Shown: positions 3,926 to 33,470 of the stretch, piece by piece
Position numbering within the stretch: position 1 is the first letter of the stretch
Layout of the letters: the number at the start of each line of letters is the position of its first letter
Assembly (NCBI RefSeq): GCF_054482525.1
Contig: NZ_CM137006.1
Length of the DNA stretch: 64,000 nucleotides
Direction: 5' to 3' (one strand)
Translations under genes and position numbers: made by a program
The notes under the pieces: generated by a model
What the model saw: only the letters and a program-made list of their open reading frames with translations
Databases searched by the model: none
Told to the model about the DNA's origin: nothing

Positions 3926-5887
3926 TTACCCTTTTCGCTTCGGCAATGTTTTCAGCAGCTCATCCGGACTTACGGATGCCACTACGCTTCCCGGTAACGG
4001 CATTTTCAGTATGTGATTTTTGATTTTGCCAATGACGTGCATCTCGCATGGGCGGCAATCAAACTTTAGCGTTAATACTTCATCGCCGTTAACCAGTTGC
4101 ATTGGCGTCGCCTTCCAGCTTTTGATATTGCCTTTCGCCTGTTTCGGGCACAGATTAAAGGCAAAGCGCAGACAATGCTTGGTGATCATCACCGGGACTT
4201 CGCCCTTCTCTTCATGTGCCTCATACGCCGCGTCAATCAGCTGCACACCATAGCGATGATAAAATTCACGCGCTTTCTGGTTGTATACGTTCGCGAGGAA
4301 ACTCAGATGCGTTTGCGGATAAACCGGCGCAGGATCAGCAACCGGTTTACGGCTGCCCCGCTGGTAACTGGCAAGACGTGCAGCATCCAGCATGTCGGCG
4401 GCTTCACGGCGGAACTGGTTTAACAGACTGTTTGATACAAACAGCGCACCCGGCAAATTAATTTGCACATCGCGGGCGTAATAGATGGTTTGCCCCAGTT
4501 TTGCCAGACCATCCTTTAGATTGTTCATTGCTTTTTCGGCGTTATTGGCTTCGTCGAAATGCCCGTCCAGCGTATGCGTGATGCTGACACCCTCTTCACT
4601 GGTGAGGGTCAGAATCAGTTGTTCCTGCCAGCCGCCCAGTTCAATGTCTACCGCCACCCGACGTTCGCTGGATGTTTTTGTCAGTGCCTGCTGCCAGTTA
4701 TGATCAAGATTACGGTTTAGTGGGTGATGCGGGCGAATTTTGTGCAACTCTGCTGGCATTTCATTGGGCCAGACGCGGTACTGATTTTCTCCGGTTTTCT
4801 CGACCGTATTGGCACGAAAGCCGACGACTTCACGTTTAATCATCACGTTCAGGCCATCGCCATTTGCCAGTGGTTCGGAAACGGCAACATCGAGATGATC
4901 TTTCGCCACTTTCAATACTTCACCCACCGGCAGGCCGATAAATTTCGGCGAATCGAACGCGCCAATATCGCCTTTACGGGCATTCACAAAATAATCTGTG
5001 CTACCACGGTTGAAAGTCTTTTCCGTCGATGGAACAAAGAAATGTTCAGTACGACCTGATGAAGCACGCGCCAGATCGCCACGTTCTTCAATAATGGCAT
5101 CCAGCATTTGGCGATAATGCGCGGTGATATTCTTCACGTAGCTCATATCTTTGTAACGCCCTTCAATCTTGAAGGAGCGTACGCCAGCATCAATCAGCGC
5201 GCCGAGGTTGGCAGTCTGATCGTTATCTTTCATCGACAGCAGATGTTTTTCATAGGAAACCACCCGCCCCTGATCGTCTTTCAATGTGTATGGCAAACGG
5301 CACGCCTGCGAGCAATCGCCACGGTTGGCGCTACGCCCTGTTTGCGCATGAGAAATGTAGCACTGACCCGAATAGGCCACGCACAGTGCGCCATGAATAA
5401 AGAATTCAATGGTCGCGTCCGTGGCCTGGTGAATCGCGCGGATCTGCTCAAGATTCAGCTCTCGCGCCAGCACAATCTGCGTAAAGCCAACATCAGAGAG
5501 GAACTTCGCTTTTTCGACTGTACGAATATCGCACTGCGTACTGGCGTGCAGTTCAATCGGCGGAATATCAAGTTCCAGAATCCCCATATCCTGAACAATC
5601 AGCGCATCGACGCCGGTCTGGTAGAGGTTGGTAATCAGCCGTTGCGCAGGTTCCAGCTCATCATCATGCAAAATGGTGTTAAGCGTGACAAAAATTTTTG
5701 CACCATAACGATGGGCAAACGGCACCAGTTCGGCAATATCTTTCAGGCTATTACTGGCATTATGACGGGCACCAAAACCAGGGCCGCCGATATAAACAGC
5801 ATCGGCACCGTGCAAAATAGCTTCGCGGGCAATGGCGGCATCGCGTGCCGGGCTTAACAGTTCAAGTCGATGAGAAGATACGGTCAC
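3926..5887 (-). CDS. ydcP: Peptidase U32-family protein (23S rRNA 5-hydroxycytidine synthase RlhA)
   Basis: Track ORF 3926..5929 (667 aa). The 653-aa form I recall for K-12 starts at the in-frame GTG at 5887 (VTVSSHRLELLSPARDAAIAREAILHGADAVYIGGPGF...). Confidence 0.85.
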   Translation of the reverse strand: MTVSSHRLELLSPARDAAIAREAILHGADAVYIGGPGFGARHNASNSLKDIAELVPFAHRYGAKIFVTLNTILHDDELEPAQRLITNLYQTGVDALIVQDMGILELDIPPIELHASTQCDIRTVEKAKFLSDVGFTQIVLARELNLEQIRAIHQATDATIEFFIHGALCVAYSGQCYISHAQTGRSANRGDCSQACRLPYTLKDDQGRVVSYEKHLLSMKDNDQTANLGALIDAGVRSFKIEGRYKDMSYVKNITAHYRQMLDAIIEERGDLARASSGRTEHFFVPSTEKTFNRGSTDYFVNARKGDIGAFDSPKFIGLPVGEVLKVAKDHLDVAVSEPLANGDGLNVMIKREVVGFRANTVEKTGENQYRVWPNEMPAELHKIRPHHPLNRNLDHNWQQALTKTSSERRVAVDIELGGWQEQLILTLTSEEGVSITHTLDGHFDEANNAEKAMNNLKDGLAKLGQTIYYARDVQINLPGALFVSNSLLNQFRREAADMLDAARLASYQRGSRKPVADPAPVYPQTHLSFLANVYNQKAREFYHRYGVQLIDAAYEAHEEKGEVPVMITKHCLRFAFNLCPKQAKGNIKSWKATPMQLVNGDEVLTLKFDCRPCEMHVIGKIKNHILKMPLPGSVVASVSPDELLKTLPKRKG

Positions 5888-28721: not shown

Positions 28722-31785
<3,064 letters not shown>

Positions 31786-31800
31786 TTTCTCTATTTTCCT

Positions 31801-32547
31801 TCAGTAACAGCAGTAGCGAATAAAATAAAAAAATACCGGAGCGGTGAAAATTAATGAGTCAATCCTGTCAAGGAGTCCGTCATGTCCTGGTAATAGTTTT
31901 CCACTATCTTTAACACCAATATCTCGTTTGATGGCTGACATCACTACATCGCCGCAAAAACCACTAATACCAATTAACAAACCCGTTAATAATGCCTGTA
32001 ATGTATTTAGCGGTGTCAGTAACGGTCCAATAATCAGTGACACAATCATGGTAGTGATTACGCCCCCCACCAGACCTTCCAGCGTTTTTCCCGGGCTGAC
32101 TTTGGGGACCACTTTTCTTCTGCCGCAGGATTTCCCCCATAAATACTGTGCAATATCGTTTGACTCGGTTAATGCCAAAAGAAATAACACCAGTAACGCC
32201 TCGCCCTGGATATTTATGGTTGGCAACATTAACAACCAGGCGGCATGACTCAAGGCGAAAACGATCATTATCCAGCCCCAAAAAATGGCGCTCACAGTAT
32301 GCAGAAAACCGGAGGGGTCCCCCACAAAAACTTGCCCGGTGGCTAATATCAGAAACCCAGCCAAAGGTATAAATAACAGATACAGCTCAAAGCAATTAAA
32401 ACCGATAAACAAATAGTTAAGAGGAATACCCCAATATAACCAACGCGGAAAATGTACAGATATAAGCGTACAATATTCTTTCAATGCCAGAAAACTTATC
32501 AGCGCAAAAAACGTCAACGTCATCCAGCGTGGACCTGAAATCACCAT
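31801..32547 (-). CDS. ynbB: CDP-diglyceride synthetase (CdsA)-family membrane protein; longest intact frame, apparently N-terminally interrupted (see findings)
   Basis: 248-aa intact ORF. The 298-aa frame from ATG 32697 (overlapping the ynbA stop) contains an in-frame TAG at 32662-32664. Confidence 0.7.
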   Translation of the reverse strand: MVISGPRWMTLTFFALISFLALKEYCTLISVHFPRWLYWGIPLNYLFIGFNCFELYLLFIPLAGFLILATGQVFVGDPSGFLHTVSAIFWGWIMIVFALSHAAWLLMLPTINIQGEALLVLFLLALTESNDIAQYLWGKSCGRRKVVPKVSPGKTLEGLVGGVITTMIVSLIIGPLLTPLNTLQALLTGLLIGISGFCGDVVMSAIKRDIGVKDSGKLLPGHDGLLDRIDSLIFTAPVFFYFIRYCCY

Positions 32548-32696
32548 TGAAAAACAAATGACGATGCCCCACCAGGTACGAATACGTAATGTAACTTCAT
32601 CCCCTTTTCTCTCCGGTAACCGCCATATCAGAAAACGGTTTATCAGCGTTGCTAAAATTAACTACGCGAAAAGTGTTGCCAGAGATTTTTCCAGCA

Positions 32697-33302
32697 TTAT
32701 CTTTCAGCACTCATCAGGAGCACACTCCGACAACGATTAATCGCAGTCCAGATAAGCAGAATTGAAGCAATGCCCCATAAAAGATTATTCCATTGCATCC
32801 ACTGTGGATAAATGGCAACGGCCAGCCCCCACAACCCAAATATTAACGCACGATCGCTTTTGCCGAATGGACCGGCATAACTGCGAATACCGTTAATCGT
32901 CTGCGCGAGTAAACCGCAAAACTCAGTCAATATGGTGCAAAATAACATGAGTATTACGAGTGATGCGTTTCTTTCCGGTAAAAATAAAAACGGTAAATAG
33001 AGCGCAATATCGGAAATAACATCGCCAGTTTCATTCAAAATCGCCCCCAGACGTGTTTGCTGATTGCACTCACGCGCCAACATGCCATCCAGCGCATTGA
33101 GCGCCATACGGATAAAAAGCACGATGGGCAATAGCAAAAAGAGGATGGGTTGTGCGACCAACATCAACAGCAATCCGGTAAAAAGAGAAAGCGCCAGTGC
33201 AGCAAGAGTGATGTGATTCGCTGTAACATGGTGCTTATAAAGCCAAAACATCGTCGGTCTTAACAGCGTCTGAAAGAGCGGTTTTATCTGGTAGAGCGTC
33301 AT
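32697..33302 (-). CDS. ynbA: CDP-alcohol phosphatidyltransferase-family inner-membrane protein
   Basis: 201-aa form MTLYQIKPLFQTLLRPTMFWLYKHHV...; contains the D-G-x2-A-R core motif (ALDGMLAR); track ORF starts 2 codons upstream. Confidence 0.85.
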   Translation of the reverse strand: MTLYQIKPLFQTLLRPTMFWLYKHHVTANHITLAALALSLFTGLLLMLVAQPILFLLLPIVLFIRMALNALDGMLARECNQQTRLGAILNETGDVISDIALYLPFLFLPERNASLVILMLFCTILTEFCGLLAQTINGIRSYAGPFGKSDRALIFGLWGLAVAIYPQWMQWNNLLWGIASILLIWTAINRCRSVLLMSAER

Positions 33303-33470
33303 TATCAATCCTTGATAATTCTGTTTGCGCTATGGTGCATCAATTGCCCTGACAGAGATATCGCAACACGCCGCTTCATTAAAAATTCAGAATATATCAA
33401 GGTATTGGGGCTCACTGTCAGGAATGATTATCCCCAATTAATCAAATAGTTAAAAATATTACGCTGTTAT

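Follow-up and report, generated by a model that had tools for sequence, protein, structure and literature searches.

A lineage-specific amber codon early in ynbB, a gene of the expendable ynb operon, in one clone of Escherichia coli

We analysed a stretch of 64,000 nucleotides (hereafter the window) from contig NZ_CM137006.1 of the RefSeq assembly GCF_054482525.1, which carries the ynb operon on its minus strand. The gene order ydbD-ynbA-ynbB-ynbC-ynbD-azoR is the one found around ynbB (b1409) in E. coli K-12. The gene ynbA (32697..33302) is intact and encodes a protein of 201 aa of the CDP-alcohol phosphatidyltransferase family (PF01066, E = 2e-09). Further down the operon, ynbC (30028..31785; alpha/beta hydrolase + methyltransferase, 585 aa) and ynbD (28722..30014; PAP2 / dual-specificity phosphatase, 430 aa) are intact as well. 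Between ynbA and ynbC lies the full-length frame of ynbB (31801..32697, 298 codons plus stop), a paralog of CdsA (Pfam CTP_transf_1) whose frame is broken at codon 12. The start of ynbC is located 15 nt past the ynbB stop and is preceded by its own AAGGA/GAGA ribosome-binding region. Searches of both strands of the region for other features returned no Rfam family and a single promoter-like site, when 4.5 were expected by chance, and the predicted RNA fold at the TAG site was unremarkable (z = -1.75). An antisense ORF of 60 aa (32558-32740) was considered and discarded, as nothing supports it.

Read directly on the minus strand, the TAA of ynbA (32699-32697) and the native ATG of ynbB (32697-32695) overlap in the hexanucleotide ATAATG (32695..32700), which probably couples the translation of ynbB to that of ynbA. 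The native ATG has no real Shine-Dalgarno (SD) sequence (duplex energy of -2.2 kcal/mol), so that ynbB translation probably depends on termination-reinitiation at ATAATG. From this ATG, the frame encodes MLEKSLATLFA, a residual ORF of 11 codons (32662..32697) ending at the amber codon TAG (codon 12, 32662..32664). Past the TAG, the ynbB frame reads LILATLINRFLIWRLPERKGDEVTLRIRTWWGIVICFSMVISGP... and remains open for 286 more codons until the stop at 31801. The first-pass annotation of this DNA had described the overlapping ATG at 32697, the 11 residues, the TAG at 32664-32662 and the open frame behind it, and had given 298 aa as the length of YnbB in K-12; every one of these coordinates was confirmed and the length given is right (897 nt including the stop). 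K-12 ynbB shares with the window gene the 298-codon frame, the ATAATG overlap and the CTP_transf_1 domain. The two genes differ at 31 of 897 nt, and K-12 has TTG where the window has TAG at codon 12 and Gly where the window has Asp at codon 273. Full-length YnbB cannot be made from the window gene without suppression.

Alignment of E. coli ynbB alleles, the check that had been proposed from the sequence, recovered TTG (Leu) at codon 12 in K-12, O145, TUM14771, VCSW5, VCSW7 and H2. In the orthologs of Citrobacter, Klebsiella, Salmonella, Phytobacter and Serratia, the corresponding position is occupied by Leu or Val. Since TTG was present in all the other alleles examined, we attribute the amber codon to a single derived base at window position 32663 (T>A in the coding sense). 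The suggestion of a nonsense mutation was thus borne out, the TAG being limited to one clone. A 61-nt probe centred on the SNP and carrying the TAG matched exactly in 3 of the 4,246 genomes holding the segment, and the ancestral 61-mer with TTG matched exactly in 3,064 genomes. With a 41-nt probe, in which each 28-nt megablast seed spans the SNP, the TAG allele was found in 3 of 5,426 complete E. coli genomes, PCN033, SCU-102 and 19KM1776. SCU-102 was isolated from a human rectal swab in the USA and 19KM1776 from a dog in Switzerland; the host of PCN033 was a pig. The three genomes are identical to the window across the 6-kb operon. Over 25 kb they are ~100% identical to it, versus 98.2% for the next best genome, and we thus consider that they represent one clone.

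A one-base departure from the consensus could be due to an error of base calling or assembly, the true codon 12 being TTG. However, the base is shared by three complete genomes that were sequenced independently from differing hosts and countries. An exact look-up of the products predicted from the TAG allele retrieved 113 contigs for the 285-aa product, one for the 248-aa product and 397 for the 240-aa product, and the two 240-aa contigs that were fetched (L016 and L017) have an identical ynbB including the TAG. The base call at 32662-32664, which had been marked for confirmation, is therefore the same in independent complete genomes and in draft contigs. As the identical ynbB recurs in independent assemblies, with at least 397 + 113 draft contigs carrying it, sequencing error is ruled out for all practical purposes, and we give it a negligible probability. 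We conclude that a genuine nonsense mutation, specific to this lineage, has arisen in a known and dispensable gene.

The interruption affects the full-length ORF of a CDP-diglyceride synthase at codon 12 from its conserved start. The CTP_transf_1 domain (PF01148) corresponds to residues 37-295 in K-12 and still matches the 248-aa remainder of the window protein with an E-value of 2e-63. Among 20 enterobacterial orthologs, YnbB residues 2-6, 10, 13, 16, 17, 20, 23 and 28 are invariant and M51 is variable. According to hydropathy, residues 5-27 form the first membrane helix. An AlphaFold2 model built from the 20-sequence alignment gave helices at residues 2-26, 33-54 and 57-79, in agreement with hydropathy; its mean pLDDT was 50, too poor for three-dimensional arguments or a fold search, which were rejected, and its secondary structure alone was used. 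The first-pass annotation had suggested that the roughly 50 residues upstream of the internal ATG probably correspond to the first transmembrane helix. This was not supported, since the predictions place two helices within residues 1-50, at 2-26 and over the larger part of 33-54. A product starting at codon 14 would be without the invariant residues L2-E3-K4-S5-L6, F10 and L13 as well as one half of helix 1, and according to the model a product starting at M51 would lack helix 1 and almost all of helix 2.

The in-frame candidate start codons past the TAG are ATT14, CTG18, ATA19, CTG23, ATA24, ATT39, ATC45, ATT47, ATG51, GTG52 and ATG59. ATT14 (32656..32658) is 3 nt past the TAG and CTG18 15 nt, and ATG51 (32545..32547), GTG52 and ATG59 (32521..32523) are at 114-138 nt. 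Searching by duplex energy for an SD upstream of ATT14, CTG18, ATG51, GTG52 and ATG59, we found none (+0.6 kcal/mol for ATT14, +1.2 for ATG51 and -3.2 for ATG59, with CTG18 and GTG52 within +0.6 to +1.2). Initiation at AUU reaches 0.02-3% of that at AUG even with a good ribosome-binding site, and the confirmed AUU starts of E. coli are those of infC and pcnB only (10.1101/063800). The ATG at 32547 had been proposed as the next usable start, and it is the first ATG, GTG or TTG in the frame (248 aa), but the ATT at 32658 and the ATG at 32523 have also been annotated as starts. At codon 51, E. coli O145 and H2, E. fergusonii and other genera have Leu; because many orthologs carry this residue there, ATG51 is not a conserved alternative start. 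The first-pass annotation had offered strain-specific reinitiation as the alternative to a nonsense mutation; restart at the ATG at 32547 would probably be weak.

The identical DNA has been annotated in three ways, as a protein of 285 aa starting at the ATT, of 248 aa starting at ATG51 or of 240 aa starting at ATG59. In RefSeq, all 3 complete genomes were given the 285-aa WP_225103962.1, called by PGAP from the ATT at 32658 as an intact gene; the 240-aa product comes from another gene caller. Among the records examined, none labels the TAG allele as a pseudogene. A 248-aa product annotated on the same TAG allele, which the first-pass annotation had named as an observation that would speak against its reading, is on record (EIH15447.1, E. 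coli 97.0259), yet this annotation corresponds to the choice of a gene caller. Since the same DNA has also received calls of 285 aa and 240 aa, the 248-aa call is no evidence of function. The type of event is ordinary, and public databases already list the TAG allele, with three annotations that do not agree.

The comparison with the nearest intact relatives, TUM14771 and VCSW5, identified only two lineage-specific changes in ynbB, L12amber and G273D, and no synonymous one. The second is a GGC>GAC change (codon 273, 31879..31881; derived base 31880). It breaks the C-terminal motif K-D-S-G-x-L-L-P-G-H-G-G-x-L-D-R-x-D of CTP_transf_1, which reads PGHDGLLDRID in the window in place of PGHGG-LDR-D. 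Gly273 is invariant in the 20 enterobacterial orthologs. It aligns with G242 in the PGHGG-LDR-D motif of the Thermotoga CdsA (TmCdsA, whose numbering was verified via the engineered S258C residue), where D246 and D249 follow it at distances of 4 and 7 residues. In TmCdsA, the D249A substitution removes 98% of activity (PMC4083444). The metal-binding/catalytic aspartates themselves are kept in the window gene, where D250, D277 and D280 correspond to D219, D246 and D249 of TmCdsA.

Elsewhere, G273D was found only in strain H2, whose divergent allele (33 differences) has TTG at codon 12. We considered using H2 to order the TAG and G273D and dropped it: at 33 differences, the G273D of this allele is independent or recombinant, so that it gives no order for the two mutations. 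The presence of G273D in the otherwise intact H2 allele suggests that this substitution is perhaps not fully inactivating. The two changes specific to the lineage in ynbB are both of a severe kind and neither is synonymous; they are only two, however, and G273D is also present in the intact H2 allele. That the 286 codons past the TAG are open carries little weight as a sign of function, because synonymous changes are equally absent from ynbB in this lineage. The counts of lineage-specific changes were 0 in ynbA, 2 in ynbB and 3 in the 5' part of ynbC, too small for a test of selection. They were obtained by ungapped polarisation over 2.7 kb, after discarding the positions upstream of about window position 33411, which were misaligned by an indel.

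We consider it most likely, with a probability of roughly 0.78, that a recent TTG(Leu12) to TAG change in one clone truncates ynbB after 11 codons and leaves a pseudogene or a severe hypomorph; in the former case, the pseudogene would most likely be young. Judging from the arrangement of the codons, ribosomes ending on ynbA would restart at the overlapping ATAATG, make MLEKSLATLFA and terminate 33 nt further on. The nearest codon for a further restart would be the near-cognate ATT, just behind the stop, the canonical ones being more than one hundred nucleotides away. Because no restart codon has an SD, ynbB output would be expected to stay within a few percent of the usual level or below. From any restart product, the invariant N-terminal residues (LEKSL, F10, L13) would be missing together with some or all of helix 1, or with helices 1 and 2, and the product would also bear G273D in the invariant motif of the catalytic site.

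Full-length YnbB could nevertheless be produced if the TAG were read through by an amber-suppressor tRNA or by natural near-cognate decoding. Natural readthrough of UAG at a low level is known, and amber suppressors exist in E. coli (glnV-CUA in 155 genomes, serU-CUA in one). However, all 60 genomes with glnV-CUA (supE) among the matches listed, of 155, are K-12 laboratory derivatives, and the fetched locus of PCN033 has the wild-type CUG anticodon in both glnV and glnX. Of the other suppressors, tyrT/V-CUA (supF) was found in 0 of 5,426 genomes and serU-CUA (supD) in DSM 498 only. For leuX-CUA (supP), the best full-coverage match among those listed had 98.8% identity, which corresponds to the wild type, seven further records at 99% or more being assumed to be partial matches. 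The CUA probes, which covered glnV, tyrT/V, serU and leuX, thus detected none of supD, supE, supF and supP in the TAG clone among the 5,426 genomes, and the window contains no tRNA gene. The glnV-CUA matches in the K-12 derivatives serve as a positive control for the suppressor probes. Among the 5,426 complete genomes, the in-frame TAG is absent from every other lineage, and since it is conserved in none of them, it is not a programmed signal. Basal readthrough of UAG yields well under 1%. Restoration of the full-length protein by readthrough thus appears extremely improbable. Another view would make the effect of the TAG mainly regulatory, Rho-dependent polarity over ~860 nt of untranslated ynbB lowering ynbC and ynbD and silencing the operon. 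Polarity is a classical effect of early nonsense mutations, and the stop at codon 12 does leave a long untranslated run upstream of ynbC and ynbD. In contrast, the ynbB mRNA contains more G (221) than C (162), a scan for Rho sites found no convincing C-rich, G-poor stretch and the C/G ratio does not exceed 1.38 in any segment of 78 nt, which makes this mRNA a poor substrate for Rho loading. In addition, ynbC has its own ribosome-binding region, and ynbA, ynbC and ynbD are intact. Strong Rho polarity is thus not predicted from the sequence, and we regard a mainly regulatory role as very unlikely.

The main alternative is that the allele is maintained as a hypomorph under selection, with ribosomes restarting at ATT14, ATG51 or ATG59 to make a shortened YnbB that still supports the synthesis of the MPIase precursor. 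The ATT lies next to the stop, and reinitiation probably drives the translation of ynbB in any case; since termination-reinitiation would bring ribosomes within 3 nt of it, restart at ATT14 could exceed the figures obtained for AUU with reporters. The 285-aa product would keep the whole Pfam domain, and the positively charged loop at residues 26-40 could still orient helix 2 correctly. The paralogous CdsA bypasses early stops via CTG and ATA, and its Δ1-36 form is partly functional in a heterodimer. Against this, every candidate start is devoid of an SD and AUU is a poor initiator, seven invariant positions are among the deleted residues 2-13, M51 is variable, CdsA Δ1-7 already fails to complement a knockout and G273D lies in an invariant catalytic motif. 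The wide spread of the lineage could be taken in favour of a selected function, but neutral loss of a dispensable gene predicts it equally well. We thus consider a functional restart product unlikely.

The CdsA system with its multiple initiation codons provides the closest comparison for such a restart, as it combines a paralogous enzyme, an early stop and downstream non-canonical codons. Stops at codons 1, 2 and 6 of CdsA are tolerated through the non-canonical internal starts CTG and ATA, complementation of the knockout is abolished when more than about 6-7 N-terminal residues are lost, and CdsA Δ1-36 works only as a heterodimer with CdsA8 (PMC11448367). For YnbB, CTG2 and CTG6 were suggested as backup starts by Hikage et al. 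2024 (PMC11448367). The window gene differs in that its stop, at codon 12, is downstream of both codons, which therefore cannot rescue the TAG allele; the next codons, ATT14 and CTG18, have no SD. It is quite doubtful that the PCN033-like clone is a natural case of the "backup initiation codon" idea put forward for CdsA and YnbB, with restart at the ATT and an active YnbB lacking the first transmembrane helix. If this were true, the conserved N-terminal helix would be dispensable for MPIase-precursor activity.

Nonsense mutations followed by translational restart are classical in lacI and T4 rIIB. The window gene has in common with them an early amber codon, in-frame potential restart codons and a dispensable gene, although restart in ynbB is only a candidate.

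The truncation favoured here, with a pseudogene or severe hypomorph as its outcome, affects a backup enzyme. YnbB is a non-essential paralog of CdsA that can make the first intermediate of the glycolipid MPIase but not bulk phospholipid. According to two studies, a ynbB knockout of K-12 grows normally with unchanged MPIase, and the knockout has an effect only in cells in which CdsA has been depleted or outcompeted (PMC6362211; PMC7018664). Cold induces both ynbB and cdsA, as two further reports indicate (PMC11413397; 10.64898/2026.06.05.730299). Loss of ynbB would be tolerated because CdsA is sufficient to provide CDP-diacylglycerol and the MPIase precursor, YnbB acting as a cold-induced backup.

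The operon has been damaged in several other ways in E. coli. No match to ynbA-ynbB was found in 882 of the 5,426 genomes, and an ynbA'-'ynbC deletion is present in about 290 E. coli genomes. An IS903B copy interrupts ynbA in one genome, VCSW7 has a frameshift in ynbB, and protein clusters revealed a ydbD-ynbB fusion (P0131) and a frameshift fusion (P0012). Its repeated loss across E. coli marks the ynb operon as expendable. The TAG allele resembles these lesions as one more independent and probable inactivation within the same dispensable operon. It differs from them in being a point nonsense mutation that leaves ynbA, ynbC and ynbD intact and that is confined to the PCN033-like clone.

The biological weight of the TAG allele is small. 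It marks a lineage, probably represents a naturally occurring null or hypomorphic form of a backup enzyme that is itself dispensable, and adds to the evidence from deletions, an insertion sequence and frameshifts that the ynb operon is expendable. The inconsistent calls made on this allele, none of which carries a pseudogene flag, inflate the diversity of the protein family and hide a likely gene loss. The allele would also allow termination-reinitiation at near-cognate codons to be studied in a simple setting. Finally, the clone provides a natural, probably ynbB-deficient background, with the rest of the operon intact, in which the contribution of YnbB to cold-induced MPIase synthesis could be studied in a pathogenic strain.

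Public records carrying the same DNA as window positions 31801-32697, that is, the ynbB allele with the amber codon at codon 12 (TAG allele), gave three different annotated starts for this one allele, numbered here on the 298-codon frame. PGAP placed the start at ATT14 (285 aa, 113 contigs), the record of E. coli 97.0259 placed it at ATG51, for a product of 248 aa, and on 397 contigs it was set at ATG59, for a product of 240 aa. The TAG allele bore no pseudogene flag in the three RefSeq records examined; by contrast, the ynbB frameshift allele of strain VCSW7 was flagged as a pseudogene. The strongest SD-like sequence of the region, GGAGAGAAAAGGGG (-6.6 kcal/mol), belonged to a 19-codon ORF, MKLHYVFVPGGASSFVFQW, located on the minus strand in the +1 frame within ynbB (window 32541-32600). 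The start of this ORF was joined to the ynbB frame by a frameshift in another E. coli lineage (protein cluster P0012), the fusion product being 266 aa long with the N-terminus MKLHYVFVPGG.

Among assemblies of the clone, SCU-102 and 19KM1776 were colinear with the window across 20000-44999. PCN033 (NZ_CP006632.1, 1552696-1578406) aligned to this 25-kb stretch as two pieces spanning 25,711 bp, implying about 711 bp extra somewhere within its interval, and the window is thus closer to the first two assemblies. In another assembly of the TAG lineage (GCA_964054925.1, OZ041018.1; positions 1-420 of the extracted locus), an IS1 transposase fragment lay directly upstream of ynbA, replacing the 3' end of ydbD; this locus had 70 mismatches to the window within its first 420 nt and was identical in the remainder. 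A small indel was also observed in the ydbD-ynbA intergenic region just upstream of ynbA (window about 33411-33432), where the window differed from TUM14771, VCSW5, O145 and K-12, and which disrupted the ungapped comparison of alleles.

The clone also carried G273D (GGC>GAC; window 31879-31881, minus strand) in the invariant CdsA-family motif PGHGG-LDR-D of ynbB, a change shared with a single unrelated strain, H2, whose ynbB was divergent yet intact. Judging from the allele sequences, G273D in H2 had an origin independent of that in the clone, or a recombinant one. The annotated ynbD of H2 was 24 nt longer (1,317 nt) and overlapped the end of ynbC (locus positions 4873-4883), whereas K-12 and the window lineage had a 14-nt gap between the two genes.

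When suppressor anticodons were surveyed in 5,426 complete E. coli genomes, glnV/X-CUA was found in 155, with K-12 derivatives accounting for 60/60 of the matches listed, and serU-CUA in one, DSM 498. No tyrT/V-CUA was present in any of the 5,426 genomes, and none of the matches listed for leuX-CUA was full-length in the same search. Classical amber-suppressor anticodon changes thus appear nearly confined to laboratory strains.

Lesions elsewhere in the species included a deletion in about 290 genomes that leaves ~190 nt from the 5' end of ynbA fused to the methyltransferase portion of ynbC, IS903B inside ynbA in one genome, the 1-nt insertion in VCSW7 ynbB and a ydbD-ynbB fusion in one protein cluster (P0131), and a ynb match was absent altogether from 882/5,426 genomes. 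The ynb operon has been lost many times independently among E. coli genomes (hits H119-H121, locus L002 and protein cluster P0131).
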